Below are positions 5,413-62,991 of a stretch of 64,000 nucleotides of DNA, piece by piece. Positions within the stretch are counted from its first letter, which is position 1; each line of letters starts with the position of its first letter. Origin of the DNA: Peptococcaceae bacterium UBA6096 (GTDB taxonomy: Bacteria; Bacillota; Peptococcia; DRI-13; UBA5745); assembly GCA_002435905.1 (NCBI GenBank), contig DIWW01000016.1, forward strand, positions 72,389 through 136,388, in the 5' to 3' direction. The notes under the pieces are model-generated. The model was given only the letters and a program-made list of their open reading frames with translations, did not search any database and was not told the DNA's origin. The translations under genes and the position numbers were made by a program.

Positions 5413-5470
5413 GGACAAAACGCTGCAATGCGACTTGTCCAACCGTTGGCTTATCAAGTTGTAGGATTAC

Positions 5471-14267: not shown

Positions 14268-14362
14268 AGCAGTCTCCTTTCGGCCAGGTCATCCGGCATC
14301 CTTGACAGGCCTGTCATTCCATTTGTGATAATATCTGATATAATCAACTTAAACAACAAGCT

Positions 14363-14557
14363 TTAGTGGCCAGCCTTGTCGCAGTATAGCTCGCCCCCCA
14401 CAGCATATTGGGCCTTGTTGATTTCCAGGATGGTGATGTCCACCCCTTCCCGGCGGGCTCCAATGGTCTCAACAATCGCATCGGTCACTTTCGCAACCAT
14501 GGCTCTTTTCTGTTCAAGGGTTCTTCCTTCGAAAATCTGGATCGTAACTTTTGGCAT
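14363..14557 (-). CDS. 4-oxalocrotonate tautomerase family enzyme (64 aa)
   Basis: MPKVTIQIFEGRTLEQKRAMVAKVTDAIVETIG... has the catalytic Pro-1 and the typical length. Confidence 0.85.
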   Translation of the reverse strand: MPKVTIQIFEGRTLEQKRAMVAKVTDAIVETIGARREGVDITILEINKAQYAVGGELYCDKAGH

Positions 14558-14648
14558 GAAAATTCCTCCTTTTGCGATTTATTCCCATTAAATTATAGAC
14601 GGCATCGAACAGCCGGTCAATCCAAATACGTCATAAAGTTGGTGCGTT

Positions 14649-19268: not shown

Positions 19269-19303
19269 ACTGTGTCTCCTCGTCTTTCGTCTTTCTAACC
19301 GGG

Positions 19304-20050
19304 TCATTCCGCCGAAGCTTCTTGGTCCCCTGAGGTATGGTCGAACTCAACGGCTTGGCCGGTCCTTTGATCGAGGATTCGATTGATTTCGCCGTCCCGC
19401 ATATAGATGATGCGGTCAGCCTGTACCGTCAGTTCCTCGTTATGGGTCACCATCACCAGGGTGACGCCGTTTTCCCGGACCCGCTCGATCAGGATATCCA
19501 TGATTTCTTTGGTGTTCTTGGTATCCAGATTGCCTGTGGGTTCATCCGCATACAATATCTTGGGATCGTTGATCAAAGCTCTGGCGATACTGACCCGCTG
19601 CTGCTGTCCGCCGCTCATTTCCGTCGGTTTGTTTCTCAGCCGTTTGCCCAATCCAATCTGCGTCAGCAGAGCCTTGGCCTGTTTTTCCCTTCGGCCTTTA
19701 GGCATCCCATCAAACATAAGAGGCATCGCTACATTTTCCACGGAGGAAAACGTCGGCACCAGATTATAGGCCTGAAAAATAAAGGCCATATAACGGCGCC
19801 GAAACAGAGCCATGTCTCTCTCTTTGATTTTATTGATACAGATACCCTTGACAAACACGTCGCCCCGGGTTGGTTTTTCCAGTCCGGCGATCAAATGCAG
19901 CAATGTGCTTTTGCCGGAACCGGAAGGGCCTAAAATGCAAATAAACTCCCCGGCGTCGATGGTTAGATCCACGTCTTTGACGGCTGTAATCACTTCATGC
20001 CCCAAACGGTATTTCCGGGTCAATCCCTTGATCTCAATAAGCGGCGTCAA
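19304..20050 (-). CDS. ABC transporter ATP-binding protein (MacB/LolD-like)
   Basis: Walker A GPSGSGKST, signature MSGGQQQRVSIARAL and Walker B ILYADEPTGNLD. Confidence 0.92.
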   Translation of the reverse strand: MTPLIEIKGLTRKYRLGHEVITAVKDVDLTIDAGEFICILGPSGSGKSTLLHLIAGLEKPTRGDVFVKGICINKIKERDMALFRRRYMAFIFQAYNLVPTFSSVENVAMPLMFDGMPKGRREKQAKALLTQIGLGKRLRNKPTEMSGGQQQRVSIARALINDPKILYADEPTGNLDTKNTKEIMDILIERVRENGVTLVMVTHNEELTVQADRIIYMRDGEINRILDQRTGQAVEFDHTSGDQEASAE

Positions 20051-33937: not shown

Positions 33938-33977
33938 AAAAAAAGTGTGCTGCAGACTCCCCAATCTGCAGCACACT
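33938..33977 (-). terminator. Rho-independent terminator after the SSS transporter gene
   Basis: Minus strand has GTGTGCTGCAG-ATTGGGGAGT-CTGCAGCACAC followed by TTTTTTT. Confidence 0.68.
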
Positions 33978-34051
33978 TATGTTCAATCTTCCGTCCCAGG
34001 AGGATTCACTCAATTTTAGGAGGACCTAAACCGGCGGCCGTCGATCAGTTC

Positions 34052-35584
34052 CTATTCCTGAATTTCATAAAAACGTTGATTGCCTTTATCCAGGAGCTGA
34101 TAGAAACCCTCAGAGTCCTTGGCATCTTGCTTGGTAAGCAGGCTGATCACGACCATACAGATGGCGGAGCCAAGCATACCGATGGCGCCATACCAGGTGC
34201 CGCCGATTTCCCAGACAGAGTAGGTCATCAAAACCAGGATGGTACCCACGATCGAAGATACTAAAGCCGCTTGCTTCGTGGCCCTCTTCCAGTAGATGCC
34301 GAAGACCAGCACAGGGAACAAAGGCATCACGATGGCGATGGCGAACATGATCAGCGTGAAAATCAGGTCCGGTGGATTGAGGGCTATCAACATAGAACCC
34401 AGTCCTAAAACAGCAATGATGATCCGGTTGACCAGGGTCTCTTTTTCTTTGGGAACATTGATTTTGAAGGTATTTTTGATCAAATCGGTGGAGACGATGG
34501 CCGAGGACACCGATAAAAAGGCATTGGCGGTGGAAAGTCCGACGGCGCAAGCGCCTACGAAAAAGCCAACCATCAGAACAACAGCCAAGGTCGGACTGTA
34601 CCCAGTCACGAAGTTATGGATCATATAAGGGATGATCAGCTCGCTGTCAGATTTAGCAAGGTCGTTGACCAGTGCAAGGCCGACCAGGCCGATAAACATG
34701 GTGCCGGTCCAAACGATACCTTGAAGAATGGGTGTGAAGTAGGACAGCCGTCTTTGTGCCCTGAGATTGTCGCCAAAATAGCCGGCCCGTACAAAGACAT
34801 GGGGCAGCATAATAGTCCAGCCGATAGCACAGGAGAAAGGATAGCCGAAACGGCCGCTGTAAGGCACCCATCCGCTGGGTCCGGGATAAGAGAAGAAAGC
34901 CGGCGTATTGGTTTTAAGGGCTGTCAGCGCCGCACCTAATGAACCGCCGAAGCCGACGATCAGGCAGGCGATCACAATGAGCCAAAGCAGCGCGATAAAA
35001 ATCAGACCCTGGAAGGTGTCGGCTAATGCTGCGGATTTTACACCGCCGACGCAGACGAAGACTGTCATGATTAGACCTACCACGATGACGGCCATTTGAT
35101 AGTTGATGGCACCGCCGGTGGCATACTTGGCAGCCGAAGCAATGGCGACCAAAACCGAGGCGATATAAGGGAAGGAGGCGCTAAGGAAAATCAGGCTCAG
35201 CACAGTGGTCAGCGGTGTGCTTTTGAAACGCTCATAATAGAAGTCCGCCGGTGTTGCCCAATTGCCGCCCTTGACTTGGTTTACGATCCAGACTTTGTTC
35301 ATGGTAAAATGAGCAATCACAGGAAACAGTGCAATATAGCTCATCTCTGAAAGCCAGTATCCTAAACCTCCCCGGTAATAGGCGCCGGGTCCGGCAAAAA
35401 ACACCCAAGTGCTCATCAAAGAGGCAATATACGTCATGACTAAAATCGGCCAGGCTACAGAGGCTGTCAGAAGGCTGCCGGTCTGGCTTTGCTTCTTCTC
35501 CTGCTGCGTTACATAAAAGGCCACGCCCATGAGGAAACACATGTATAAACCGAAGGCGATCCATATGACTTGTGGACTAAGCAT
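34052..35584 (-). CDS. Sodium:solute symporter (SSS) family transporter, 510 aa
   Basis: About 13 predicted TM helices with SSS-like composition (…GGLGYWLSEMSYIALFP…, …IIAVLGLGSMLIAL…). Translationally coupled (8-nt overlap) to a small upstream membrane protein. Confidence 0.82.
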   Translation of the reverse strand: MLSPQVIWIAFGLYMCFLMGVAFYVTQQEKKQSQTGSLLTASVAWPILVMTYIASLMSTWVFFAGPGAYYRGGLGYWLSEMSYIALFPVIAHFTMNKVWIVNQVKGGNWATPADFYYERFKSTPLTTVLSLIFLSASFPYIASVLVAIASAAKYATGGAINYQMAVIVVGLIMTVFVCVGGVKSAALADTFQGLIFIALLWLIVIACLIVGFGGSLGAALTALKTNTPAFFSYPGPSGWVPYSGRFGYPFSCAIGWTIMLPHVFVRAGYFGDNLRAQRRLSYFTPILQGIVWTGTMFIGLVGLALVNDLAKSDSELIIPYMIHNFVTGYSPTLAVVLMVGFFVGACAVGLSTANAFLSVSSAIVSTDLIKNTFKINVPKEKETLVNRIIIAVLGLGSMLIALNPPDLIFTLIMFAIAIVMPLFPVLVFGIYWKRATKQAALVSSIVGTILVLMTYSVWEIGGTWYGAIGMLGSAICMVVISLLTKQDAKDSEGFYQLLDKGNQRFYEIQE

Positions 35585-35807
35585 GCGTGTTTGCCCCCTT
35601 ATCCTTATTCTGTTCTTTCAATTTATACACTTTGTAGACCCGGTTCATCCCTGCATAGGCCAAAATCCAAAGAGGCACCACGGTCAGCACACCATGAACA
35701 AGCATGCCCTGAGCGTCTCCCATGGCTGGTACACCGGGTATATTATAAAGAATATAAAAGATTGCCGTTGCGATGAGCCAAAGCCGTTCTGATTTGGTCG
35801 TTTTCAT
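35577..35807 (-). CDS. Small 2-TM membrane protein coupled to the SSS transporter (YhdT/DUF997-like position)
   Basis: The 76-aa protein has two hydrophobic helices (LWLIATAIFYILYNI, VLTVVPLWILAYAGM). A strong RBS (GAGGAGGAGAG) lies upstream. Overlaps the transporter start. Confidence 0.55.
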   Translation of the reverse strand: MKTTKSERLWLIATAIFYILYNIPGVPAMGDAQGMLVHGVLTVVPLWILAYAGMNRVYKVYKLKEQNKDKGANTHA

Positions 35808-36024
35808 GTTCTCTCCTCCTCGTTATTGGAATATTTCGATAACATTGATTCGGTAAGATGTTCCCTTTTTGCCGCCGGGGGGAAAACGATGGCCGGTATT
35901 CTCGTTGACAGAGGCCGGAGGCGGGTGGACGTCACAAGGTTTCGATCCGCTTGTGTTCCACCCGGAGGGGCTGCGCCCTCTCCCCGATCCTGTCAAACCA
36001 GTCCGTAAAATCAATCAGTTGAAA

Positions 36025-37464
36025 CTATTTTACCAACGCCTTATGGGCTTTCTCCAAAGCGGCGTCAATGGCCTGGATCCGTTCGGCGGAAAGATCAACC
36101 TTGACAGGTGATTTCACCAGCTCTTCATAACGTTCTGTGGCCAGATCCAGAAGGGTCTTCTTGCCGTTTTGTTCCCACTTGGCCATACCATCCCGGTTGA
36201 ATAACCGAGGACGATGGGGCTCGGTGAAATGGCGCATGGTATGATCGCTCACGATGAAGCCGGCTTTGTCAACCTCATCAATGAGTTCCTGATAAGCAAG
36301 GGTCTCATCATCCACCACCAGGCCTTGACGCAGACGGTGGGCAGTCCCAAAGATTTCATTGTCGATGATCAGCTGCAGGGGGCTGATGGTTTTCGCCGTT
36401 TCCAATTGGCCGGCGCCGCCCAGCACGCTGGCATCGGACATGGCCATCATGTGGATCAGGGAGGTACGCTCGATGAAATTCTGTTCGTCCAGGATCAGGC
36501 TGTCGGTTCCGGTGCCGTAGGAATGGGCCCGGATATTGTAGCCCTGCTCAAACAGCTGCATGCACATCAGACGGGCCATGGTGATCTCCGTATTGGACTG
36601 CAGCGTATAGGTGGTCATCATATCCATGGAGAACAGCAAGGTGGTGGCAATGACTGGCGTGCCGGGCCCGATCAGCTGGATCATGATGATCATCGCCATA
36701 ACCTCGGCACAGGCAACCAAAGCAGTGCCCTGGGCAGTGACCGGCGTATTGGCGCCTGCCGTAGGCAGAGAACAGGGCTGCACAGGAACGCCAGCCTTGG
36801 CGCAGCGATACAGGACCTCAGCGTCCATCCGCTTCCAAATCAGAACAGGTACGCCGCAGGAGATGAAGCTGACGATGGGATTCTTACGCAGTTCATCCAG
36901 GCCGCCCACGGCAGCTGCAGCAATTTCGATCAGCTGCTGCACATTGTCGGTTTCATAAGGCTGGATCCAGATATGTTTTTTGCTGTGCTTCAGCACCTGA
37001 GCCAGTGTATAGACGTCGATGGCGTCCACCGGCACTTCTTCGCCGGAGGTGGAGGGCAGTGTGCAGTAATCAATATTCTCCATGGAATTGATCAGCTGGG
37101 TCCACTCTGCAACTTCATCCAACGTAATATAGTGAGAATCATTCTTCGTATCCAGATAATTCATGGCGCCGGTATTGGTACGGACATAGAAATCACCTGT
37201 GGGATTCGGGAATTTCAGATCACGTTCGCCGGAAGGGGATTTCAAGGTAAATTCTGCGGGCACTGAAGCCAATGCCTTCTTGATCAGCGCTTTGCTGAAT
37301 TTTACGTTGTGGCCGTTCACTTCGGCGCCGGCTGCCGCCAGCTCGGCCACCAGCTCAGGATGGTCCACCTCAATACCCCGGATCGACAACAGGTCCTCGA
37401 TCCGATTCTTCATGAGTTCCAATTCCTGGGCATTCATCACATCATATTTGATTCTGCCTCGCAT
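36025..37464 (-). CDS. MttB-superfamily (trimethylamine methyltransferase family) substrate:corrinoid methyltransferase, non-pyrrolysine type
   Basis: The 479-aa uninterrupted frame includes GVPVQPCSLPTAGANTPVTAQGTALVACAEVMAMIIMIQLIGPGTPVI...SYGTGTDSLILDEQNFIERT...LQLIIDNEIFG, the characteristic MttB-family core. There is no in-frame TAG. Confidence 0.88.
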   Translation of the reverse strand: MRGRIKYDVMNAQELELMKNRIEDLLSIRGIEVDHPELVAELAAAGAEVNGHNVKFSKALIKKALASVPAEFTLKSPSGERDLKFPNPTGDFYVRTNTGAMNYLDTKNDSHYITLDEVAEWTQLINSMENIDYCTLPSTSGEEVPVDAIDVYTLAQVLKHSKKHIWIQPYETDNVQQLIEIAAAAVGGLDELRKNPIVSFISCGVPVLIWKRMDAEVLYRCAKAGVPVQPCSLPTAGANTPVTAQGTALVACAEVMAMIIMIQLIGPGTPVIATTLLFSMDMMTTYTLQSNTEITMARLMCMQLFEQGYNIRAHSYGTGTDSLILDEQNFIERTSLIHMMAMSDASVLGGAGQLETAKTISPLQLIIDNEIFGTAHRLRQGLVVDDETLAYQELIDEVDKAGFIVSDHTMRHFTEPHRPRLFNRDGMAKWEQNGKKTLLDLATERYEELVKSPVKVDLSAERIQAIDAALEKAHKALVK

Positions 37465-37540
37465 GTTGTGCTCCTTTCGAATGGGCTTTCTTCATCGCCC
37501 TGTACGCATGTTTTTCTATTCTATTCCGGTCCCTTTGGGA

Positions 37541-38173
37541 CTATGCCACATAGCCCTTGGCCAGTCTTGCGGCTTCCGCTGCATCCGCAGCAAAACAATC
37601 AGCGCCAATTTTATCCGCCCAGGCCTGATTGATAGGGGCACCGCCAACCATGACTTTGACCTGATCTCTAAGTCCCTCTTTGACCAGGGCTTCGATCACA
37701 TATTTCTGCTCATACATCGTCGTTGTCAGAAGCGCCGCCATGCCGATAACATCCGGTTTATGTTCTTTCACGGCTGCAACAAATTTATCGGAGGAAACGT
37801 CGGAGCCCAGGTCGATGACCTCAAGTCCGGCGCTGCGCATCATTAAAGCCACCAGATTTTTACCGATGTCATGAAGATCGCCCTTGACCGTACCCACGAC
37901 CACCGTGCCGATGGTGGTGACGCTGCCGTCCAGCATCAGGGGTTTGATGACCTCCACGCCCTCGTTCATGGCTTTCGCAGCCATCAGAACATTGGGAACA
38001 AAGACCTCGTTTCTTGCAAAACGCTCGCCGATCAGATTGATGCCGGGCATCAGACCCCCATCCAGGATCTCTTTGGCGGTCAGGCCCTGATCGACAGCCT
38101 CCTGAGTCTTTGCCTTGATATTCAAATAATTTCCCGCGATGACCAAATCTGAAAGTTCCTGTAATATACTCAT
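37541..38173 (-). CDS. Corrinoid (B12-binding) protein 1, MtbC/MtgC-like
   Basis: N-terminal helical cap, then VVGTVKGDLHDIGKNLVALMMRSAGLEVIDLG (DxHxxG ... SxL ... GG motif set) and VMVGGAPI. Confidence 0.88.
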   Translation of the reverse strand: MSILQELSDLVIAGNYLNIKAKTQEAVDQGLTAKEILDGGLMPGINLIGERFARNEVFVPNVLMAAKAMNEGVEVIKPLMLDGSVTTIGTVVVGTVKGDLHDIGKNLVALMMRSAGLEVIDLGSDVSSDKFVAAVKEHKPDVIGMAALLTTTMYEQKYVIEALVKEGLRDQVKVMVGGAPINQAWADKIGADCFAADAAEAARLAKGYVA

Positions 38174-38210
38174 GTTTTTTCCTCCCTTTATTGTTTGCTG
38201 AGATGCGGTA

Positions 38211-38849
38211 CTAAGGGATCTCCCGTATGATCTTCAAGACCTTTTCTTTGGCTTCAATAGCGTTGTCGGAAAACAATGCGTGGATTTCCCGGGCAAATTC
38301 GCTGGTCACAGGATTGCCGCCTACCAGGATGATGACAGGTTGATCAAAGGTTTCCCTCTGTATCGCCTCCACGACATCCTTCATATTGGGCATCATCGTG
38401 GTCAGCATCGCCGAAATCAGCACCACTGAAGCTTGGGTCCTTCGGATTTCCTGGATAAATTCCTCTTTGGTGACGTTGGTGCCCAGGTCAACGACCTCAA
38501 GGCCGGCACTTTCCAGAAGCATCTTGACCAGTTGTTTTCCGATGTCGTGGATATCACCTTTTACCGTACCGATGATCACCTTGTCCAGTTTGGGCAGTTG
38601 AGAGTCTCCCAGATAGCGTGCGACCTGATCCATCCCTTTGGCAATCACCCGGGCTGACATTAGGATCTCCGGGATAAATTTTATCCCGCTGCGATACTCT
38701 GCCTCTACAACATCCATTCCCGGAACCAGGCCTTGACTAATGATCCCCATAGGTTCAAAGCCTTGCTCCAGCATGGTTTGGCAAAGTTCTGCTGCTTTTT
38801 CCTCATCTCCGGCAACGACTGCTTTTGTGATTTCCTCAAATAGGTCCAC
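38211..38849 (-). CDS. Corrinoid (B12-binding) protein 2, a paralogue of protein 1
   Basis: IIGTVKGDIHDIGKQLVKMLLESAGLEVVDLG and ILVGGNPV. The best start is GTG 38847-38849 (GGGAGG 5 nt upstream). Alternatives are ATG 38870 or the track start 38975, which would add a hydrophobic, unrelated N-terminus. Confidence 0.8.
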   Translation of the reverse strand: MDLFEEITKAVVAGDEEKAAELCQTMLEQGFEPMGIISQGLVPGMDVVEAEYRSGIKFIPEILMSARVIAKGMDQVARYLGDSQLPKLDKVIIGTVKGDIHDIGKQLVKMLLESAGLEVVDLGTNVTKEEFIQEIRRTQASVVLISAMLTTMMPNMKDVVEAIQRETFDQPVIILVGGNPVTSEFAREIHALFSDNAIEAKEKVLKIIREIP

Positions 38850-39113
38850 TTCTACCTCCCGTTGACGCATCCACCGCCAAAATGGTTCAGGGGTCTTTCT
38901 AACTGCATTATCCGATAACAGGGAGAAAAAAACTAAAATAATAACCGTGTATTTTTGTAAATATTTGCACAACATGCCGGCAGTGTAATATTTCCCTCTT
39001 GCCGGACTGAATTTTGGTCAAATTTTTGACTTCCGATCCACTTTACCTTTATTTTATTACAGTGCTATAATAAAACAAGCTTAAAAATTTTATCGATAAA
39101 AGCAGGTGAAGAT

Positions 39114-40397
39114 ATGCCGGAAAACCTCTTTGATATCATTAAATTAACGGAGATCGCCCAGTGTTTTTACGAATGCACCTCCGTTCCCGTGACGGTTTTC
39201 AATGAAAAAATGGAGATTCTGGCGGAAGCCGGACGGGATCAAAAAATTTGTAAATTCTTTGACATCTATAACTCCAGAGGACCCTGCACGAAAGTCCTAA
39301 AATTTTCCGGGGAGATGGCCTTAAGCCTTGGGGAACCCTATATTTACTCTTGTCCCGCCGGTTTTCTGAATCTATGTGTGGCGCTGATCTCCGAAAAAAA
39401 GTTCCGGGGCTGCTTTATCGCCGGGCCGATCTCCATGAACACCATCAGTGAAAAAAACATTAATGCCATCATGGATCTGAACAAAAACTCCAGCGGCACT
39501 GCCGGCATGTTCAGCAAACTCAGCCTCTTTATCCGGGATATGCCTGTTTATTCACCGGCCAGGATCTCCAGTCTTGCCCGTCTTTTATTCAATAATGTAT
39601 TGAGTCTTTACAGTGATCGGGCAGATTACCTGTACCTCAGCAACAAATATGATACCTACACGCATATCTCCGAAACCATCAAAAAGCACAAAGAAGAACA
39701 GCGCCTGACGCCGGAAGCGATTCGCCAAAGCAACAGCGATGACCGGATCCGGGAACTGCTCAAGCGGATCCAGGCCGGTGACCATTCCGGCTCCCGTGAT
39801 CTGATCCGCCTGATTCTGGAGGATATCCTGATTACAGAAGCCGGCAACTTTGAAATCATGAAAATCCGCCTTTTTGAGCTCTATATGAGCCTTTCCAGGG
39901 CTGGCGTCGAAAGCGGCGCCTCGATTCAGAAGGTCTTTGGAATCCAATTTGAATTGGTCTCTTCCTTGACAAAAATCTATACCCTTCCGGAGCTGCATCT
40001 ATGGTCCCAGCAAGTGGTCGATCATTTCATCGACAACGTCTTTTCGACCATTTATGCCGGCCATTCTCTGATCATTATCAATGCCATCCAGCATATCAAT
40101 ACAAATTATATGACCAAGATCAACCTAAGAAACCTGGCAAACCTCCTGCATGTCAACGAATCCTATCTTTCCAAGCTTTTTAAACAGGAAATGGGAAAAC
40201 ACTTCACCGATTATATCAATGAAATCCGGATCAATAAAAGCCTTTCCCTGATCCGGGATACAGACAACAACCTGTTGGACATCGCCGTTGCCGTCGGCTT
40301 CGAAGATCAAAGCTACTATACGAAAATTTTTCGCAAGGTGATGGGTGTGACGCCCAAGCAGTATCGCAACGGAAACAGCCAGACCGCCCCATCCTAA
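39114..40397 (+). CDS. PocR-sensor / AraC-type HTH transcriptional regulator
   Basis: The N-terminal PocR-like region (FYECTSVPVTVFNEKMEILAE...YIYSCPAGFLNLCVALI) is followed by the C-terminal AraC HTH (LANLLHVNESYLSKLFKQEMG...IAVAVGFEDQSYYTKIFRKVMGVTPKQYR). Divergent from the corrinoid/mttB operon. Confidence 0.85.
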   Translation: MPENLFDIIKLTEIAQCFYECTSVPVTVFNEKMEILAEAGRDQKICKFFDIYNSRGPCTKVLKFSGEMALSLGEPYIYSCPAGFLNLCVALISEKKFRGCFIAGPISMNTISEKNINAIMDLNKNSSGTAGMFSKLSLFIRDMPVYSPARISSLARLLFNNVLSLYSDRADYLYLSNKYDTYTHISETIKKHKEEQRLTPEAIRQSNSDDRIRELLKRIQAGDHSGSRDLIRLILEDILITEAGNFEIMKIRLFELYMSLSRAGVESGASIQKVFGIQFELVSSLTKIYTLPELHLWSQQVVDHFIDNVFSTIYAGHSLIIINAIQHINTNYMTKINLRNLANLLHVNESYLSKLFKQEMGKHFTDYINEIRINKSLSLIRDTDNNLLDIAVAVGFEDQSYYTKIFRKVMGVTPKQYRNGNSQTAPS

Positions 40398-40503
40398 GAC
40401 GGATTTTTGTCACTTCCCCTCAAGATAAAAATATTACTAAAAAAAGTGGATATTTTCTGAAACCGATCCGGGATTGCAGGATTAAAATAGAAGATAACAT
40501 ATT

Positions 40504-41175
40504 ATGGACAGGGGGCTTTGCATCGTGCTTGAATCTGTGAATACCGTTTGCACCGCTGCACAGGACACTGTGTACCAACGCCTGCAAATTACCGGCGATT
40601 CCCTGGCCGCTTTGCATTCCAGGGAACTCTATCCTCAATTGTTTGCCCTTGCAGAAAAGTTAAGCCAATTGACCTGCTTGTACAGTCTGCTGCCCCGCAC
40701 CGGCGTCTTAGGTATCCCGGAGCTTGATCGCTGCTCCCATTTGGTCTACTGCTTTGTTTCGACCGGTCCCCACCTGGGGCAAGCCATTGGGGATTTTTTC
40801 CTAAAAAAAGATTATTTAGAGGGTTTCCTTCTGGACCATCTGGGAAACGAAATTTTATTTAACGCCTCCGAACAAATGAATCATACCATCGCCGAGCGGC
40901 TGCAAGCCCAAGGTCTGAATCTTACCGCCCGGTTTTCCCCGGGAGAAGGAGCCCTGGACCTGGAATACCAAGCTGTCATCCTGGAAGCGCTGCAGCGCCA
41001 AGGGGAAATCCCAGCCCAGCTGAACGACCATTTCATGCTCTCGCCGGAAAAAACGATTTTGTACGTATTTGGCGCAGACAAAGACATCTGCGCTGGCAGC
41101 ATCCGACATGATTGCCGGCTCTGTGATCGGCAAAGCTGTTACTTCCGTATCGAATCGACCGCAAAGGAAGTGTGA
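40504..41175 (+). CDS. MetH activation-domain-like protein (vitamin B12-dependent methionine synthase activation domain family); tentative
   Basis: ~220 aa. ARFSPGEGALDLEYQAVILEAL resembles the SPGYG-type core of that domain. It sits immediately upstream of, and overlaps, the reductive activase gene, a recurrent pairing. The start is uncertain (weak RBS; alternative GTG near 40525). Confidence 0.45.
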   Translation: MDRGLCIVLESVNTVCTAAQDTVYQRLQITGDSLAALHSRELYPQLFALAEKLSQLTCLYSLLPRTGVLGIPELDRCSHLVYCFVSTGPHLGQAIGDFFLKKDYLEGFLLDHLGNEILFNASEQMNHTIAERLQAQGLNLTARFSPGEGALDLEYQAVILEALQRQGEIPAQLNDHFMLSPEKTILYVFGADKDICAGSIRHDCRLCDRQSCYFRIESTAKEV

Positions 41176-41177
41176 TC

Positions 41178-42974
41178 ATGTCGAATCTGGAAGTCCTTTT
41201 CCCCAACCAGGGCCTATGCCTTCTGCTGCCTCAGGGGATCACCCTGGCAGAGGCCTGCGATGCCGCCGGTCTTGCTTTGGATTTGGTATGCAGCGGCCGA
41301 GGCACTTGCGGCAAGTGCCGGATCCGGATCCAGGAATCTGACGGATGTCAGCATGAGGTTCTTGCCTGCAAGACAAAACTGGACCGGCCACTGCAAATTC
41401 TTTTGAAAGAATCGGACTATGTCCACTGGGCACAGCTTCTGACGGCCGGTTATAGCGGTCGGTCTTTTGATTTTTCCCCGGCCCTGACCAAGCGTTTTCT
41501 CTCACCGGAGCAGCTTACCCCCGCTTATTGTGGCCAATATGCGGATCTGGACGCTCCCTTGCTTCTTGCAGAACTGGGCCGTCAGATGCAGCAATGCCAG
41601 GCTGCCGGGCAACCTCAGCCCACAGACCAGGGCCTTACGCTGGTCTATAACGAAGAAGCCTTGTTGGCCATCCAAAACGGAGACACCACGCCCCGGCTCT
41701 ATGGGGCTGCCTGTGATATCGGAACCACCAGCGTCGCGCTCTATATTTATGATCTTACTTCCGGAAAACTGCTATGCACCGGCTCGGCCCTGAATGGCCA
41801 AATCATTCATGGAGCCGATGTCATCAGCCGGATCAGCTATTGCCAGTTCCAGCCGGAAGGTACCCAGACCCTTCAACGCCTCATTTTGGATACCCTGGAT
41901 CAGCTTCTGACCGAAACCGCCGCACAGCTGCCGGGACTGCTTCAGGATCTTTATTCTCTGGTGGTCTGCGGCAACACCACGATGCAGCATCTGTTTTTTG
42001 GCATCTTTCCCGGCGCCTTGGGCCACAGTCCTTTCGCCTCCATTTCCCACCATACACAGACCTGCAGGGCCAAAGGATTAGGCCTGGCACTGCCTGCCGA
42101 TTGCATGGTGACCTTCTTGCCCCTGATCGGCGGCTTCGTGGGGGCCGACACCACCGCCGTGCTTTTAACGCTTCCGGAGGATGACAAACTGCGTCTGGTG
42201 ATCGACCTGGGCACCAACGGCGAAATCGTTTTAGGCAAGAACGGCAAACGCCTGGCTGCTTCCACCGCCTGCGGTCCTGCCCTGGAAGGCGGATGCCTGG
42301 CCTGCGGCATGCGCGGCAGCAACGGGGCCATTGACACCGTCGAAATCATCGATGACGAAGTGCACTTCCATTGTATCGGCGATGCGCCGGCTAAGGGCCT
42401 CTGTGGTTCTGGCATCGTCGATCTGGCTGCCGTTCTGCTCGTTGCCGAAATCATGGATCCCAGCGGACGGCTGCTCTCCCGGGAGGAATACCAAAGCATT
42501 CATCCAGGCTCCGCTTTGGCCCGGCATTTGGCAGTCCACGAAGGAAGCAATGCTTTTTTTCTAACAGAAACCGTCTTTCTTACCCAAAAAGATATCCGGC
42601 AGATCCAGTTGGCTAAAAGTGCAATTTGCGCCGGCTGCCTGGCTTTGATGGCAGATTACGGCTGCACCCCGGAGGAAATCCATGAGCTGGTCTTAGCCGG
42701 AGCCTTCGGCAATCACATCCAAATCGATTCTGCCCTGACCATCGGCATGCTGCCGCCAGTCTCCAGGGAGCGTATCCTCTCCATTGGCAACGGCGCCGGT
42801 CAAGGTGTCTGCCAATACCTTCTGGACCGTCAAGCCCAGAATCGGGTGCAGCGCATAAGGGGTGAGACAGTCCACCGGGAGCTGGCCTGTGATCCGTTCT
42901 TCATGGAAGAATACATTATGCAAATGAACTTCCCCCTTCGGATGACCTCCCAGGAAAGGAGTTGCTCTGCATGA
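41178..42974 (+). CDS. Reductive activator of corrinoid enzymes (RamA/RACo-like): N-terminal 2Fe-2S ferredoxin plus ASKHA ATPase domain
   Basis: CSGRGTCGKCRIRI (plant-type 2Fe-2S Cys cluster). ASKHA phosphate motifs AACDIGTTSVALYIYD and VIDLGTNGEIVLG. Start ATG 41178 (AAAGGAAG 7 nt upstream); the track uses GTG 41172. Confidence 0.85.
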   Translation: MSNLEVLFPNQGLCLLLPQGITLAEACDAAGLALDLVCSGRGTCGKCRIRIQESDGCQHEVLACKTKLDRPLQILLKESDYVHWAQLLTAGYSGRSFDFSPALTKRFLSPEQLTPAYCGQYADLDAPLLLAELGRQMQQCQAAGQPQPTDQGLTLVYNEEALLAIQNGDTTPRLYGAACDIGTTSVALYIYDLTSGKLLCTGSALNGQIIHGADVISRISYCQFQPEGTQTLQRLILDTLDQLLTETAAQLPGLLQDLYSLVVCGNTTMQHLFFGIFPGALGHSPFASISHHTQTCRAKGLGLALPADCMVTFLPLIGGFVGADTTAVLLTLPEDDKLRLVIDLGTNGEIVLGKNGKRLAASTACGPALEGGCLACGMRGSNGAIDTVEIIDDEVHFHCIGDAPAKGLCGSGIVDLAAVLLVAEIMDPSGRLLSREEYQSIHPGSALARHLAVHEGSNAFFLTETVFLTQKDIRQIQLAKSAICAGCLALMADYGCTPEEIHELVLAGAFGNHIQIDSALTIGMLPPVSRERILSIGNGAGQGVCQYLLDRQAQNRVQRIRGETVHRELACDPFFMEEYIMQMNFPLRMTSQERSCSA

Positions 42975-43906
42975 CCGAGCTGCTGCTGCTTACCGGTTTT
43001 TTAGGCGCCGGCAAAACCACCCTGCTCAACCGTCTCTTAGAAGAGCAAACAGTAAAAACCGGTGTGATCGTCAATGAATTCAGCCAAACCGGCGTGGATG
43101 GCCAGTTGCTCAAGGCTCCAAGGGGCATCGATCTGGTCGAGTTGAACAATGGCTCCATCTTTTGCGCCTGCATCAAGGACAACTTCGTCGATGCCTTGAT
43201 CCAGCTTTCCGATGCGGGTCTGGACCGCCTCTTCATCGAAGCATCGGGACTGGCGGATCCTGCCAGTTTTGCCACCATTCTCGAAGGAATCCGCCCCCAC
43301 ATCCAACAGCCCTATCATTATCTTGGCTCTGTCTGTCTGGTGGACGCCCTCTATTTCCCCCGTTATTTCAAGCTGCTGCCGGCTCTGCGCCGCCAGCTGG
43401 AATACAGCCAGGCTGTCTTGATCAACAAAACGGATCTGGCCGACGAGCCCCAACTGGAGCTCTGCCGAGGGTTGATCCGGGAAACCGCACCGGAGGCTTA
43501 TCTTTGTGAAACCCGCTATGCCCAGGTCCCCTATGATCAATTGGTCCGGGAAATGGCGCGCCGCAGCAGCACCTCCCGTGATGCCCAAACCAGCAGCAAT
43601 ACCGAGGGCACCCGTCCTAAAACCGTGACGCTCTCGACTATGGAAGCCATTACGCCTGAACAGCTAGCTCAATTTTTACAGGAGATCGCTCCCCACACCT
43701 ACCGGATCAAAGGCTTTGTCCTAACCACCGACGGTCTTTATCTGGTCAGCGGCACCGGCCTTGTCTTGACCAACAGTCCGGCGCGCCAGTGGGAAGGTCA
43801 AAGCACCACCTCCCTGGTGATCATCTCCAGCGTCGGTCTGTCCATCGTCTCGCGGGTGCTGGAGGCCGCCCAAAAGGTCTATGCTACACCGGTGAATCTC
43901 CGGTAA
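42971..43906 (+). CDS. COG0523/CobW-family P-loop GTPase (metallochaperone family)
   Basis: LLLLTGFLGAGKTTLLNRLL (P-loop), EASGLADP (switch) and INKTDL (NKxD-like). ATG 42971 forms an ATGA overlap with the activase stop. The usual GCxCC metal motif reads GSIFCAC here. Confidence 0.85.
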   Translation: MTELLLLTGFLGAGKTTLLNRLLEEQTVKTGVIVNEFSQTGVDGQLLKAPRGIDLVELNNGSIFCACIKDNFVDALIQLSDAGLDRLFIEASGLADPASFATILEGIRPHIQQPYHYLGSVCLVDALYFPRYFKLLPALRRQLEYSQAVLINKTDLADEPQLELCRGLIRETAPEAYLCETRYAQVPYDQLVREMARRSSTSRDAQTSSNTEGTRPKTVTLSTMEAITPEQLAQFLQEIAPHTYRIKGFVLTTDGLYLVSGTGLVLTNSPARQWEGQSTTSLVIISSVGLSIVSRVLEAAQKVYATPVNLR

Positions 43907-43927
43907 AAGCAGAATTTTACAAAAGGA

Positions 43928-43965
43928 AGCGGTCTTTATCCTAGAATAAAGCCGCTTTTTTTTTT
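43928..43965 (+). terminator. Rho-independent terminator after the COG0523 gene
   Basis: AGCGGTCTTTAT-CCTAGA-ATAAAGCCGCT followed by T10. Confidence 0.68.
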
Positions 43966-44062
43966 ATGATTAAACCACGCTAAAGGCTTATCTGATCCCC
44001 GTAAGACTTTAGCCCTATCTTTAAAAAATACATTGCTCTGTTATTGAAAGGAGTTTCATCCT

Positions 44063-45418
44063 ATGGGTAAAGAATTAGTGTTCCAGACGCTGAGACACGA
44101 ACAAACCCCCTCGGTTGCCTGGGTGCCGTTTGCAGGCGTTCATGCGGGAAAATTGAAAGGTTATTCCGCCCAGGAAGTCCTGGAAGATGCGGACAAGCTT
44201 TATGAGTCCCTCCTGGAGGTCCACAAGCTTTATTCTCCCGACGGCATGCCCATCGTGTTTGACCTGCAGCTGGAAGCGGAGATCCTTGGCTGTGAGCTTT
44301 TATGGGCCAAGTCCAATCCCCCTTCCGTCAAAACCCATCCCCTGGCCGGCAGTGAGTACAACCTCCCCTGCAAATGCAAAATCCCCACCAAGGAATCCGG
44401 CCGGATTCCCATGATCCTGGATGTCATGAACCGGATAAAAACGGCCGTTGGCGCCGATACCGCCTTATATGGTTTGATCTGCGGCCCCTTCACACTGGCT
44501 TCCCATCTCAGAGGCAGCGATATCTTCATGGATATGATCATGAATGAGCAATATGTCCGAGATTTGGTGGAATTCTGCGGCGAAGTCTGCATGCGGATGA
44601 CCGATTTCTATGCAGAAGCAGGGATGGACGTGATTGGCATCGTGGATCCCCTGGTCAGCCAGATTGCCCCGGAGCACTTTGTTTCCATGCTAAGCCCCAC
44701 CTTCACCGCCTGCTTTGATTACGTCCGAAGCAAAGGTCTCTATTCTTCCTTCTTTGTCTGCGGCAATGCCACCCTGCAGCTTGAGGTCATGTGCCACACC
44801 AAGCCTGACTGCATCTCGGTGGATGAGAACGTGGATATCATCAAAGCCAAAGATACCACGGATAAATACAACATCACCATTGCCGGCAACATTCCTCTGA
44901 CCACCGTCATGCTTCACGGCAACCAACAGGACAACATCAAATGTGTGGTGGATCTGCTGGATGGCATCGAGCACCATAATTTCATCCTGAGCCCCGGCTG
45001 CGATATGCCTTATGATGTACCCATCGAAAATACGGTGGCTGCCATGCAGGCCGTTAAGAACACGGATATCGCCAGAGCCATGGTCGCTGACTATGAAACC
45101 AACTGGGATGACATCGCCGTTGAACTCCCTGATTACGCCAAACTGAAGAAGCCCTTGCTGGAGGTCTTCACCCTGGATTCCGAAAGCTGCGCTGCCTGCA
45201 CCTACATGTGGAACAGCGTGAAGGATGTCCAAGAAAAAGTTTTTGGCGACAAGATCGATATCATCGAGTACAAATATACGATCAAAGAAAACATTGCCCG
45301 CACACGCAAAATGGGTCTGACCAATCTGCCGACTTTGGTGATCAACGGCCAGATCAAATGGGTCTCCATCATTCCCAGCCGGGATAAGCTGGTCGCGGAG
45401 ATCGAGGAACTTCTGTAA
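44063..45418 (+). CDS. URO-D-family (MtaA/CmuA-like) methyltransferase fused to a C-terminal thioredoxin-fold domain
   Basis: The first ~345 aa resemble uroporphyrinogen decarboxylase-family corrinoid methyltransferases (VPFAGVHAGK..., GLICGPFTLASHL, FILSPGCDMPYD). The last ~100 aa read LLEVFTLDSESCAACTYMW...LPTLVINGQIKWVSIIPSRDKLVAEIEELL, a small thioredoxin/glutaredoxin-like fold with CAAC encoded at 45188-45199. Confidence 0.8.
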   Translation: MGKELVFQTLRHEQTPSVAWVPFAGVHAGKLKGYSAQEVLEDADKLYESLLEVHKLYSPDGMPIVFDLQLEAEILGCELLWAKSNPPSVKTHPLAGSEYNLPCKCKIPTKESGRIPMILDVMNRIKTAVGADTALYGLICGPFTLASHLRGSDIFMDMIMNEQYVRDLVEFCGEVCMRMTDFYAEAGMDVIGIVDPLVSQIAPEHFVSMLSPTFTACFDYVRSKGLYSSFFVCGNATLQLEVMCHTKPDCISVDENVDIIKAKDTTDKYNITIAGNIPLTTVMLHGNQQDNIKCVVDLLDGIEHHNFILSPGCDMPYDVPIENTVAAMQAVKNTDIARAMVADYETNWDDIAVELPDYAKLKKPLLEVFTLDSESCAACTYMWNSVKDVQEKVFGDKIDIIEYKYTIKENIARTRKMGLTNLPTLVINGQIKWVSIIPSRDKLVAEIEELL

Positions 45419-53668: not shown

Positions 53669-54250
53669 CTATTTGTTTTCTTCAAGATATGCCGCAATGC
53701 AGGTATCATAAGCCGCCGTATGGGCAAAAGCCTCCGCGGCCAGCTGCCGGCGCATGACCAGGGATACTTCCCCTTTTTCCCGGAGCTCCGCCAGCAATTG
53801 GGCATACCGTTCCGGTTTCACCACGATGGCAACCCGTTCATGGTTTTTGGCCGCTGCCCGGACCATGGCCGGTCCGCCGATGTCGATCTGTTCCACGGCT
53901 TCTTCACGGGTGATGCCCGGCTTGGCAATGGTTTCACGGAAAGGATAAAGATTGACCACCACGATGTCGATCATGTCGATGCCTGCCGCGGCGGCCTCGC
54001 TCTGGTGCTCTGGGGTGGGCCGTGCCAGGATCCCGCCGTGGATCTTGGGATGCAGGGTTTTGACCCGGCCATCCATGATCTCCGGGAATCCAGTCACAGA
54101 GGACACAGTGCGGACAGGAATGCCTGCAGCCTGCAGGGCTTTGTAGGTCCCGCCGGTAGAAATGATTTCATAGCCTAATTCGGTCAGTGCCTTGCCAAGC
54201 TCCGTGATTCCGGATTTGTCGGATACACTGACCAATGCTCTCTTACTCAT
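53669..54250 (-). CDS. purH: Stand-alone IMP cyclohydrolase (MGS-like N-terminal domain of PurH), 193 aa
   Basis: [46 protein letters not shown]...[15 protein letters not shown]...VVVNLYPF...[16 protein letters not shown]. The frame stops where bifunctional PurH would continue into the AICARFT domain. Confidence 0.85.
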
Positions 54251-59057: not shown

Positions 59058-60239
59058 TTAGTGGTGGAATAAACGGATCCCGGTAAAGGCCATCGCGATG
59101 TGGTATTTATTGCATGTTGCGATCACATGGTCATCCCGGATGGAACCGCCGGGCTGCGCAATGTATTGAACACCGCTGCGGCTTGCCCGCTCGATGTTGT
59201 CCCCAAAGGGGAAGAAGGCGTCAGAACCGAGAGAAACCCCCGTCAGCGTATCCAGCCAGGCACGCTTTTCTTCCCGGGTCAAGGCTTCGGGCTTTTCAGT
59301 GAAGTAATTCGACCAGACATCGTCGCCCAAAACATCCATGAAATCATCGGAAATATAAACATCGATGGTGTTGTCCCGATCCGGCCGCCGGATATCCGGC
59401 CGGAAAGGCAGATTCAACACTTTGGGATTTTGGCGCAGATACCAGATATCGGCTTTGCTGCCAGCCAGACGGGTACAATGGATGCGGGATTGCTGGCCGG
59501 CTCCGACCCCGATCACCTGGCCTCCCTTGGCATAACATACGGAATTGGATTGGGTGTATTTCAGTGTGATCAAGGCGATCAGCAGGTCCCGCTTAGCTTC
59601 CTCCGGAATCGTCTGGTTGACCGTGGGCATCTCCTGGAGCATGCCCCCATGGATCACCAGCTCGTTCCGTCCCTGCTCGAAGGTGATGCCATAAACGTCT
59701 TTTTGTTCGATGGGCGCCGGCACATAACGCTCAGACATCTGAACCACGGTGTAGGTGCCTTTGCGCTTTTCCTTCAGGATCGTCAGCGCCTCATGGGAAT
59801 AACCGGGCGCAATCACCCCGTCGGAAACCTCTCTGGCAATCAAGCGGGCTGTCTGGACATCGCATTCGTCTGAAAGCGCAATAAAATCGCCATAGGAGGA
59901 CATCCGGTCCGCGCCTCTCGCCCGGGCGTAAGCACAAGCCAATGGAGACAATTCAAGGTCCTCCACAAAATAGATCTTCTTCAGGGTTTCATCCATCGGC
60001 AAGCCCACCGCGGCCCCTGCCGGGCTGACGTGTTTGAATGAGGCTGCCGCCGGCAGGCCAGTTGCCGCCTTCAGTTCTTTGACCAGCTGCCAGCTGTTGA
60101 AGGCATCCAGAAAGTTGATATATCCAGGCCGGCCATTCAGCACCTGAATCGGCAATTCGCCCTCCTTCATAAAAATTCTGGACGGCTTCTGATTCGGATT
60201 GCAGCCATATTTTAATTCGAGTTCCCGGGCCACCAGCAT
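59058..60239 (-). CDS. purH: Stand-alone AICAR transformylase (C-terminal domain of PurH), 393 aa
   Basis: ELKYGCNPNQKPSRIF...FKHVSPAGAA...AKGGQVIGVGAGQQSRIHCTRLA...LGSDAFFPFGDNIERA...AQPGGSIRD is the AICARFT pattern. No MGS/IMPCH domain is present. Confidence 0.88.
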   Translation of the reverse strand: MLVARELELKYGCNPNQKPSRIFMKEGELPIQVLNGRPGYINFLDAFNSWQLVKELKAATGLPAAASFKHVSPAGAAVGLPMDETLKKIYFVEDLELSPLACAYARARGADRMSSYGDFIALSDECDVQTARLIAREVSDGVIAPGYSHEALTILKEKRKGTYTVVQMSERYVPAPIEQKDVYGITFEQGRNELVIHGGMLQEMPTVNQTIPEEAKRDLLIALITLKYTQSNSVCYAKGGQVIGVGAGQQSRIHCTRLAGSKADIWYLRQNPKVLNLPFRPDIRRPDRDNTIDVYISDDFMDVLGDDVWSNYFTEKPEALTREEKRAWLDTLTGVSLGSDAFFPFGDNIERASRSGVQYIAQPGGSIRDDHVIATCNKYHIAMAFTGIRLFHH

Positions 60240-61898: not shown

Positions 61899-62165
61899 AT
61901 AGACCATCCTTCCATTCTACGTGTTCTCAAGTCCAACCGGATCCGCATGATCAAACGCTGCCTGCAAACCTGCAGACCCTATCCATGGCTCATAAGAGCC
62001 CTACTATAAAAAATAGTATATTACCCGCTGATAAAGAAATCAACCTTTTTCCATGGAATTTCAAGCAAATCAAAGGTTTCAATCCAGCCATTTATGGATA
62101 TAATGATCATAATAAGCCAGGGCGTTGTCCAATTCGGATGAACCCCCTCGCAAGGAGGCCGGAAT

Positions 62166-62716: not shown

Positions 62717-62991
62717 AATACAAACCGTTGAGCAAGAGAAGTACGAAAAGTCGGGTGTATCCAGAGAGCCGCCGATGGTGGGAGTGCGGCAGCACAGATT
62801 TTTCCGAATGGACTTGCGAGGGCAGCTTGAAACTGTAGGGCAGGAGTAGACGCTGACGGGAACCTCGTCCGTTATCAGTGAGGTGCATATGATGGTATGC
62901 AAAATGAGTGGATGATTTCGGTCATCAATTTGGGTGGTATCGCAGAAGTTTAAAAGCTTTTGTCCCTTAAGGGGGGCAGAAGCTTTTTTTA
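62717..62991 (+). promoter_or_regulatory. T-box riboswitch leader, tryptophan-specific (specifier UGG)
   Basis: Stem I elements are present (GCAAGAGAAGTAC, CCAGAGAG). A specifier-loop-like GAA-TGG-A places TGG at 62809-62811. The T-box sequence AATTTGGGTGGTATCGCAG lies at about 62927-62945. The terminator AAGCTTTTGTCCC-TTAA-GGGGGGCAGAAGCTT plus a T-run (62954-62990) sits directly upstream of trpE. Confidence 0.88.

Follow-up and report, generated by a model that had tools for sequence, protein, structure and literature searches.

A ten-gene corrinoid methyltransferase island of Peptococcaceae bacterium UBA6096 with a non-pyrrolysine MttB homologue and a candidate second methyltransferase of the URO-D family

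We analysed a stretch of 64,000 nucleotides (nt) from Peptococcaceae bacterium UBA6096 (contig DIWW01000016.1, assembly GCA_002435905.1), which is called the window here and to which all positions refer. At 34052–45418 the window contains a ten-gene island for corrinoid-dependent methyl transfer, built on a homologue of MttB that lacks pyrrolysine (Pyl). On balance, we lean to reading the island as an inducible pathway for the demethylation of an imported small methylated compound. The MttB homologue would be its substrate-side methyltransferase (MT1), and a protein composed of a URO-D fold and a C-terminal thioredoxin-like domain (URO-D::Trx) would be its second methyltransferase (MT2). The MT2 role is proposed because URO-D::Trx shows the pattern of a shared component across genomes, because its fold is MtaA-like, and because no folate methyltransferase is linked to it. 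The island is one instance of a widespread modular system and not a peculiarity of this genome.

The ten genes form two divergent units. The minus-strand unit contains the genes of an importer of the sodium:solute symporter (SSS) family, a 76-amino-acid (aa) protein, the MttB homologue and two corrinoid proteins (CP-A and CP-B), and the plus-strand unit those of a regulator, a MetH-activation-like protein, a reductive activase, a COG0523 GTPase and URO-D::Trx. All open reading frames (ORFs) were found in the ORF list at the positions below. Pfam and NCBIfam profile searches and Protein Data Bank (PDB) matches confirmed the gene content and domains that had been given in a preliminary description of the same DNA.

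33943–33978, minus strand: terminator-like hairpin that ends the minus-strand unit, located 74 nt downstream of the SSS stop (16-bp stem with 7 G-C pairs, then a T run; a match to the consensus only)
34052–35584, minus strand: SSS-family importer, 510 aa (PF00474 at 112 bits)
35577–35807, minus strand: small hydrophobic protein, 76 aa, putative accessory subunit of the importer, predicted in the preliminary description to have two transmembrane segments; its stop and the SSS start share an 8-nt overlap
36025–37464, minus strand: non-Pyl MttB-superfamily methyltransferase, 479 aa, proposed MT1 (PF06253)
37541–38173, minus strand: corrinoid protein CP-B, 210 aa, general carrier type (B12-binding_2 and B12-binding, DxHxxG)
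38211–38849, minus strand (mechanical ORF to 38975): corrinoid protein CP-A, about 212 aa (B12-binding_2 and B12-binding, DxHxxG)
38850–39113, between the two units: divergent control region, conserved core at about 38905–38973 (GCATTATC ... CTAAAATAA ... TTTGTAAATATTTGC.CAA)
39114–40397, plus strand: regulator with PocR sensor and AraC-type helix-turn-helix, 427 aa (PF10114 with PF12833/PF00165)
40504–41175, plus strand: MetH-activation-domain-like protein, 223 aa, putative partner of the activase (PDB 1j6r, TM0269, E = 2.3e-5, residues 66–189)
41172–42974, plus strand: RACE/RACo-type ATP-dependent reductive activase, 600 aa (PF17651 at 153 bits, PF14574 at 237 bits)
42962–43906, plus strand: COG0523 (CobW/ZigA-like) GTPase, 314 aa, proposed metallochaperone (PF02492 at 130 bits, with PF07683)
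44063–45418, plus strand: URO-D-fold methyltransferase with a C-terminal CxxC thioredoxin-like domain, 451 aa, proposed MT2 (PF01208 at 170.7 bits)

The MttB homologue and its transporter cassette

The 479-aa protein scored 221.1 bits against PF06253 (cut-off 25), its residues 6–472 covering profile positions 30–494, and its frame runs uninterrupted without any stop over the 479 aa. It aligns on both sides of the Pyl position in M. barkeri MttB (7xcl) and in one bacterial Pyl-MttB; the position is occupied by Gly319, which is invariant in 119 homologues. The score for the Pyl-dependent model TIGR02369 was 268.9 bits against a cut-off of 525, and no in-frame UAG was found. The corrinoid-dependent system on a non-Pyl MttB homologue that had been described is therefore upheld by the uninterrupted frame, Gly319 and the PF06253 match.

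Through the sequence comparison, the protein was found closer to Pyl-MttB (159 bits against 7xcl) than to MtgB (106 bits against 9yce/2qne). Identity was 27% to the bacterial Pyl-MttB, 22% to MtyB and 25% to MtcB, the sequences of the last two having been machine-read from a supplementary figure. It belongs to a clade of its own, 22–30% identical to MttB, MtgB, MtcB and MtyB, whose 119 homologues share 58–94% identity and have T98, H314, Y316, G319, D321, G349 and A357 invariant. In MtgB, glycine betaine is bound by Y97, R312, H348 and F356 (PMC13080624); at the aligned positions the clade has T98, H314, G349 and A357 without variation. For the Arg that corresponds to MtgB R312, the Krzycki group reported conservation in all five characterised non-Pyl enzymes; here the invariant His314 takes its place, the motif reading I-[P/R]-[A/C]-H as compared with [V/I]-P-x-R. 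Our comparison with the characterised non-Pyl enzymes took in MtgB, MtcB and MtyB, and not MtpB and MthB. The low identities, the score against MtgB and the lack of the four MtgB residues and of the conserved Arg place the protein outside the characterised clades.

Since the active-site-equivalent positions are invariant in the clade and unlike those described, the clade appears to have one conserved specificity, distinct from the described ones. With the Arg and the aromatic pair both missing, a classical acidic betaine held in the manner of MtgB is a less likely substrate. The protein falls into the "MtxB" category of MAGICdb, by which name we call it below; this category holds non-Pyl MttB-superfamily genes of the human gut with no substrate assigned (bioRxiv 10.1101/2022.06.20.496735). 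Its gut relatives (Pseudoflavonifractor phocaeensis, Lachnospiraceae, Eubacterium, Butyricicoccus) are 58–69% identical. MAGICdb catalogues genes only and describes neither an SSS cassette nor a URO-D::Trx module.

For the SSS importer, no PDB relative was found by sequence, and the nearest curated models of NCBIfam were the equivalogs PanF and PutP, both far below cut-off. A dedicated Na+-solute symporter suggests that the methylated substrate may be small and polar or zwitterionic. The 76-aa protein matched no family in Pfam or NCBIfam even at E ≤ 1. Its cluster (c8) comprises 17 members, every one of them located between an MttB homologue and an SSS gene. A scan of genomes with the MttB homologue gave 23 loci, in which the ten proteins were placed by tblastn and precomputed annotations; SSS orthologues (56–84% identical) come after the MttB homologue, and MttB, small protein and SSS are adjacent, in 18 of them. 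The SSS-type importer with a small partner, noted in the preliminary description, is therefore a conserved pair. The same description had held that uptake in the characterised non-Pyl systems is usually of the BCCT type, which holds only in part, since the genes of MtcB and MtyB adjoin those of MFS transporters. A second SSS-family transporter (503 aa, PF00474 at 168 bits), encoded in the window at 60396–61907 on the minus strand, has no small partner gene, and over 118 residues its identity to the island importer is only about 28%.

The hosts of the three-gene cassette are Peptococcaceae-like metagenome-assembled genomes (MAGs), Dethiosulfatibacter aminovorans, Lachnospiraceae, Eubacterium, Catenibacillus and Butyricicoccus. 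Among public records, the island has its closest relatives in uncultured MAGs of Peptococcaceae and Clostridia, in which the MttB homologue is 94% identical; the close MAGs of these groups, together with locus L035, keep the same ten-gene order. In P. phocaeensis (Oscillospiraceae; L024–26), Acetobacterium bakii (Eubacteriaceae; L027) and L037/L038 the ten genes are reordered, and a 452-aa URO-D::Trx gene stands directly after the SSS gene. A search for MttB, SSS and URO-D::thioredoxin in synteny had been proposed earlier, and the set indeed recurs in Peptococcaceae MAGs, P. phocaeensis and A. bakii. Because the arrangement is conserved across families of Bacillota, it is not due to chance.

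Elsewhere the parts separate. In Lachnospiraceae the three-gene cassette stands alone amid murG, murC, PPTase, aminotransferase and NlpC/P60 genes, which give no hint of a substrate, and in A. bakii the cassette is followed by genes for a Fer4 protein, ApbE and MCP. In D. aminovorans one contig contains PocR, two corrinoid proteins, MttB, the small protein and SSS, and another contains RACE, the MetH-activation-like protein (p212), PocR, URO-D::Trx and CobW. The island is therefore composed of a substrate module (MttB homologue, 76-aa protein, SSS) and a generic module (PocR-AraC, MetH-activation-like protein, RACE, COG0523 GTPase, URO-D::Trx).

Two variants of the cassette were also seen. In locus L002, which holds a close relative of the island, SSS is directly followed downstream by a second MttB-family gene (13976–15379, minus strand; 467 aa, 31–33% identical to MtyB/MtcB) and a BCCT transporter gene, so that a distinct cassette of the betaine type is attached to the island there. 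MttB orthologues of about 61% identity without the small protein and SSS were found in L008, L012, L017 (Brotonthovivens ammoniilytica) and L018. In L008, L012 and L017 the gene lies in the neighbourhood where other Lachnospiraceae have the full cassette, so the transporter pair was lost there or never gained.

The URO-D::thioredoxin protein and the proposed pathway

The AlphaFold2 model of URO-D::Trx (pLDDT 84.7, pTM 0.84) displays an MtaA-like TIM barrel. Its best PDB match was MtaA (4ay7; E = 1e-16, target-normalised TM-score 0.85, 24% identity), ahead of HemE and MetE. The thioredoxin-like domain scored 19.9 bits for Thioredoxin_3, below the cut-off, and matched the PDB thioredoxins 1nho and 1fo5. 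The best 120 homologues are about 450 aa long and 63–94% identical; in an alignment of 22 family members the motifs FFVCGN (Cys233), SPGCDMPYD (Cys313), PCxC (Cys103, Cys105) and CAAC are invariant. Compared with 4ay7, both Cys of the zinc site are kept and the His ligand is replaced by Phe (F231-V-C233 ... C313). In a library clustered at 50% identity the family forms a compact group of 105 representatives at E ≤ 1e-30, of which fused forms with CxxC show 38–57% identity and unfused forms 40–50%. Family members already carry the automatic label "methylcobalamin:coenzyme M methyltransferase", and "mtbA" genes of a Peptococcaceae appear in one genome paper, so that the family has been noticed without being studied.

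The company of URO-D::Trx was followed through eighty metagenome loci, the loci of four named homologues and an unbiased clustering of ORFs. Thirty loci were well flanked (at least 5 kb on both sides), and in these we counted neighbours within eight genes. A COG0523 GTPase was found in 27 of the 30, a corrinoid protein in 21, RACE in 17, PocR-AraC in 14 and a recognisable MT1 in 11. The MT1 genes are of at least three kinds: the MtxB clade; at least six other non-Pyl MttB clades, 22–29% identical to MtxB; and amber-split Pyl-MttB/Pyl-MtbB accompanied by pylS, pylD, pylB and pylC, as in Sinanaerobacter chloroacetimidivorans. URO-D::Trx is much more conserved than the MT1 genes it accompanies. 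Company of this kind, with three or more sorts of MT1, is what one would expect of a shared component independent of the substrate, as MtbA is in methanogens (PMC8318568).

Several other genes recur in this company. Between URO-D::Trx and COG0523, human-gut and other metagenome loci (L074–L081, L089, L091, L093 and L105; for example L105:11751–12746) encode a BATS-domain radical-SAM protein (c10, about 331 aa), and in termite-gut-like loci CobW is followed by a second radical-SAM family (c38, about 397 aa). DUF2284 (Cys-rich, "predicted metal-binding protein") and DUF5714 recur beside URO-D::Trx, CobW and RACE (for example L067:15054–15614 and L034:12347–13015). In L098 (5667–7670) and L058 a 667-aa hydantoinase/MutL-like ASKHA protein (Hydantoinase_A, Hydant_A_N) is encoded between the corrinoid protein and RACE, and is reminiscent of the "unknown 668-aa" protein that strain DCMF has in its glycine betaine cluster.

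No protein of the Pterin_bind or MtrH families was found in the window by Pfam and full annotation, which agrees with, and extends beyond the island, the earlier statement that a pterin-binding MT2 is missing. Across more than 100 related loci no recurrent neighbour cluster was a pterin-binding methyltransferase, and when 107 unclustered neighbours of 225–345 aa were scanned together against Pfam, no family recurred among the 25 families listed. The E. limosum genes mtqA, mtqC and ramQ, of which mtqA adjoins ramQ, lie apart from mtcB, mtyB and mtpB. By analogy with this organism, the absence of an adjacent folate methyltransferase would not be unusual in itself.

Of the two corrinoid proteins, in which the motifs GDLHDIGKNLV and GDIHDIGKQLV quoted earlier were both recovered, CP-B scored 219 bits for TIGR02370 (cut-off 215.3) and matched 1y80 and MttC (7xcn_M). 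It is 50–58% identical to the corrinoid proteins that adjoin URO-D::Trx in loci without this MttB clade. CP-A, with both Pfam domains and the motif present, scored 158 bits, under the same cut-off. The CP-A type is restricted to MttB-SSS islands, and CP-B is the one that adjoins the MttB gene.

The observed gene content, domains, folds, conservation, modularity and co-occurrence would fit the following scheme. PocR-AraC, on a presumed effector, would switch on both divergent units, and the SSS importer with its 76-aa partner would bring in the substrate. MtxB would then move one methyl group from the substrate to the Co(I) of a corrinoid protein, CP-B serving as general carrier and CP-A as a second carrier particular to the island. 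URO-D::Trx, in the manner of MtaA/MtbA, would unload the methyl-Co(III) corrinoid protein onto a cellular acceptor, and the COG0523 GTPase would be the metallochaperone that supplies its metal. RACE and the MetH-activation-like protein, using ATP and a low-potential electron donor, would return accidentally oxidised Co(II) to Co(I). The acceptor would probably be a metal-activated thiol, and less probably tetrahydrofolate (THF). In the UroD superfamily the enzymes that retain both Cys are S/Se-methyltransferases and the O-demethylases lose one or both (PMC10418091); a thiol is favoured here because both Cys ligands are retained and because COG0523 is so tightly linked. As the MT2 role of URO-D::Trx is itself a proposal, the completeness that the preliminary description ascribed to the island is putative.

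Several findings weigh against URO-D::Trx as MT2. Its NCBIfam scores were far from those required for MtaA (136.9 bits, cut-off 400), TIGR01463 (135.7, cut-off 235.4) and MtbA (122.4, cut-off 600). The zinc site His-x-Cys...Cys of MtaA, MtbA and MtsA is absent, with His replaced by Phe in all 22 close members and in most distant ones; the canonical H-x-C appeared only in distant SCMT-like representatives (25–30% identity) and in P0244. No MT1 was found near URO-D::Trx in 19 of the 30 well-flanked loci, which fits a shared component but also a self-sufficient system. The characterised bacterial corrinoid methyltransferases of the URO-D family, namely MtvB, OdmB, VdmB, CmuA and CdmB, are MT1 enzymes, and, judging from E. 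limosum, a folate MT2 can be encoded far from its MT1. Furthermore, a simple scheme of three components does not account for the presence of two corrinoid proteins. Acetogens, A. bakii among them, require methyl-THF, a requirement for which a thiol acceptor offers no explanation; taken with the missing His and the invariant extra cysteines, this requirement may leave THF open as the acceptor.

As a tentative alternative, the island could hold two parallel methyl-donor systems. URO-D::Trx would be a second MT1 (for a methylthio, methoxy or methylseleno donor, for example) and load one corrinoid protein, the MttB homologue would load the other, and a pterin-binding THF-dependent MT2 outside the window, similar to MtqA/MtgA, would unload both. 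This would agree with the MT1 role of the characterised bacterial URO-D enzymes, with the two distinct corrinoid protein types and with the dispersed E. limosum genes; many loci also consist of a corrinoid protein, URO-D::Trx, CobW and RACE with no other methyltransferase in view. An MT1 should diversify with its substrate, yet URO-D::Trx stays 60–94% identical across families (Peptococcaceae-like MAGs, Oscillospiraceae, Eubacteriaceae, Anaerovoracaceae and Tissierellia), and its steady pairing with varied methylamine-type MT1 and pyl genes would be hard to explain for an unrelated substrate. Moreover, CP-B, the type that neighbours URO-D::Trx elsewhere, adjoins the MttB gene here, and in strain DCMF, a Peptococcaceae relative, the folate-using MttB-family clusters have their own 265-aa MtgA.

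We regard it as unlikely that URO-D::Trx and a corrinoid protein form a self-contained system of the MtsA/MtsB kind, carrying out both half-reactions between methylated and free thiols or selenols, so that the linkage to MttB would only reflect shared maintenance genes (RACE, COG0523) and not one pathway. The minimal unit of corrinoid protein, URO-D::Trx and CobW, with or without RACE, is indeed the commonest arrangement, both Cys ligands are kept, and the thioredoxin-like and COG0523 parts bear weak similarity to selenium-associated NCBIfam families. URO-D-only corrinoid clusters without a folate methyltransferase have also been tied to methyl-sulfur and methyl-selenium metabolism (PMC10418091). 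Against these stand the ten-gene set, which stays together through at least three rearrangements, the recurrent linkage to Pyl methylamine genes, and the single URO-D paralogue of the island, where type 1 mlp clusters need both Mlp2 and Mlp3. No sulfur or selenium metabolism genes recurred among the neighbours of the URO-D::Trx loci. It is very improbable that URO-D::Trx is no pathway methyltransferase at all and works as a redox or metal maintenance factor of corrinoid proteins with RACE, the MetH-activation-like protein and COG0523: its tighter association with COG0523 and RACE than with any MT1, its invariant CxxC domain and the lost zinc-binding His would suit such a role, but it keeps a full MtaA-like TIM barrel with many invariant pocket residues and both Cys ligands, no precedent is known to us, and the system would be left without any MT2.

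Control region, accessory proteins and surroundings in the window

The mechanical ORF of CP-A encodes 254 aa, against 211–214 aa in its homologues. A GGAGG sequence, a putative ribosome-binding site, was found at 38855–38859 on the minus strand, 5 nt before a GTG at 38849; in the intergenic alignment of six relatives no block there is invariant other than its complement, CCTCC. From these three points the start of CP-A is probably GTG 38849, and the gene probably 38211–38849. The apparent N-terminal extension is a translated conserved intergenic DNA element at about 38905–38973. The control region consequently extends over about 264 bp (38850–39113) and not, as first described, over 138 bp (38976–39113). 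Its core is conserved in the window, L001–L005 and L035 while the flanking intergenic DNA has diverged. The core motif was absent from the distant loci searched and is limited to close relatives, for which reason we rejected it as a general PocR-AraC operator. This lineage-specific element is probably the promoter and operator of the minus-strand unit. A promoter-like site (TTTACC-18-TATAAT with an upstream TG) was found ahead of the regulator gene at 39042–39071 on the plus strand. In 14 of the 30 well-flanked loci PocR-AraC is divergent from corrinoid-protein genes or from URO-D::Trx.

The 223-aa protein matched neither PF02965 nor any other Pfam family even at E ≤ 1, and its PDB match is a stand-alone homologue (1j6r). 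Its stop overlaps the RACE start by 4 nt, and the same two genes adjoin in L002–L005, L024–L028, L035 and L038. RACE belongs to the RACE/RACo family by its Raco_middle and RACo_C_ter domains, a match to RACo (3zyy, E = 7e-75) and 333 bits for AcsV. An N-terminal ferredoxin-like motif CSGRGTCGKC...C (C-x5-C-x2-C...C) is visible, and Pfam Fer2 was not matched at E ≤ 0.01. A 600-aa ORF at 17505–19307 was considered as well and is not a RACE. In the COG0523 GTPase the Walker A motif GFLGAGKTT is present, and the canonical CxCC is changed to CxC[I/L/R]; GSIFCAC[I/L/R]K, with CxC for CxCC, is conserved in 62 COG0523 neighbours from related loci. The gene comes after URO-D::Trx in 27 of the 30 well-flanked loci.

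The genes flanking the island have unrelated housekeeping functions, and the rest of the window, which was annotated in full, contains housekeeping genes, a cobalamin-biosynthesis operon and transporters. By tblastn of the ten proteins no island paralogue was found in the window, except the mutual match of CP-A and CP-B and one weak SSS match. Inside the island no Rfam element or riboswitch was detected at E ≤ 1. A cobalamin riboswitch (RF00174, 77.8 bits) lies at 5211–5462 on the minus strand, upstream of the cobalamin-biosynthesis operon at 1032–5025 (minus strand; CbiA/CobB-like amidase, CobD-like aminotransferase and CobQ), indicating that the organism makes or remodels the cofactor that the island needs. 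A T-box leader (RF00230, 104.5 bits) was found close to the window end at 62719–62970 on the plus strand. The purH function is apparently split into two minus-strand genes about 5 kb apart: 53669–54250 (193 aa) encodes the MGS/IMP-cyclohydrolase part and also matches AICARFT over its first 59 profile positions, and 59058–60239 (393 aa) the AICARFT part, covering profile positions 75–311.

Relation to described systems and significance

The pathway logic of MT1, corrinoid protein, MT2 and activase is classical, and in this respect the architecture of the island is ordinary. The closest composition is that of the methylamine:coenzyme M systems of methanogens (MttB/MtbB/MtmB, MttC/MtbC/MtmC, MtbA and RamA) and the glycine betaine:coenzyme M system of Methanolobus vulcani (MtgB, MtgC; PMC6855144). 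The island resembles them in its MttB-superfamily MT1, a TIGR02370-type corrinoid protein, a shared URO-D-fold candidate for MT2 and an ATP-dependent reductive activase. It differs in its host, which belongs to Bacillota, in the Gly of MT1 instead of Pyl, and in the activase, which is RACo-type and not RamA-type. Unlike the methanogen MT2, URO-D::Trx has the C-terminal CxxC thioredoxin domain and Phe-Cys-Cys instead of His-Cys-Cys, and the island adds COG0523, the MetH-activation-like protein and the SSS importer. Coenzyme M is not expected in these bacteria.

The bacterial quaternary-amine:THF systems (D. hafniense MtgB/MtgC/MtgA; E. limosum MtpB, MtcB and MtyB with MtqC/MtqA/RamQ, and MthB/MthC/MthA/MthK) likewise combine an MT1 of the MttB superfamily that lacks Pyl with a corrinoid protein and a RACE-type activase, and their components can also be split between loci. 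The island MT1 is distant from theirs and without MtgB Y97, R312, H348 and F356; moreover, no pterin-binding MT2 is linked, the importer is SSS with a small subunit instead of BCCT or MFS, and the regulator is PocR-AraC instead of RocR-like. Type 1 mlp clusters (Kountz and Balskus, PMC10418091) share with the island URO-D proteins homologous to the soluble coenzyme M methyltransferases, a corrinoid protein, RACE, the lack of a THF methyltransferase and hosts among anaerobic Firmicutes; but they contain two or three URO-D paralogues (Mlp2 and Mlp3), His-Cys-Cys and no MttB-family gene, whereas island and window have a single URO-D gene. The bacterial URO-D enzymes of the MT1 type (MtvB, the O-demethylases OdmB/VdmB, CmuA, and the chloromethane dehalogenase CdmB; PMC13222342) have the same TIM barrel and a corrinoid-protein partner, and, set apart here by description only, are substrate-specific and paired with a pterin-type MT2 (CdmA, OdmD, MtvA).

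In the literature searched, which left out most subscription papers, we found no description of the URO-D::Trx module, of the MttB-SSS cassette or of a bacterial MtbA. Within the same limits no paper describes the component set as a whole, in line with the earlier view that it matches no described pathway.

Extending the proposed MT2 role, we might speculate, with considerable reserve, that URO-D::Trx with COG0523 is the bacterial counterpart of MtbA, a universal methylcorrinoid methyltransferase for both the Pyl-dependent (trimethylamine, dimethylamine) and the non-Pyl MttB-family demethylases of anaerobic Bacillota, and that its acceptor is of the thiol type rather than THF.

Interest in the MttB-family demethylases of gut anaerobes comes from their removal of trimethylamine and its precursors, compounds with a link to cardiovascular disease. 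Only two of the 17 non-Pyl MttB clusters in the gut hold characterised enzymes (bioRxiv 10.1101/2022.06.20.496735). The MtxB clade is a tractable one, with a dedicated importer, cultured strains (A. bakii, P. phocaeensis, D. aminovorans) and an active site unlike all characterised members. The URO-D::Trx/COG0523 module is a widespread candidate for the acknowledged missing second methyltransferase of bacterial trimethylamine and dimethylamine systems. If its acceptor is something other than folate, ideas on what becomes of methyl groups in non-acetogenic gut bacteria would need rethinking; if it is folate, the protein would represent a new fold for the methylcorrinoid:folate reaction. Should the MtbA-like role be true, gut and sediment bacteria would have a folate-independent methyl sink (methanethiol or another methyl thioether, for example), and through the SSS-linked MtxB clade the superfamily would gain a new substrate that is not betaine-like.

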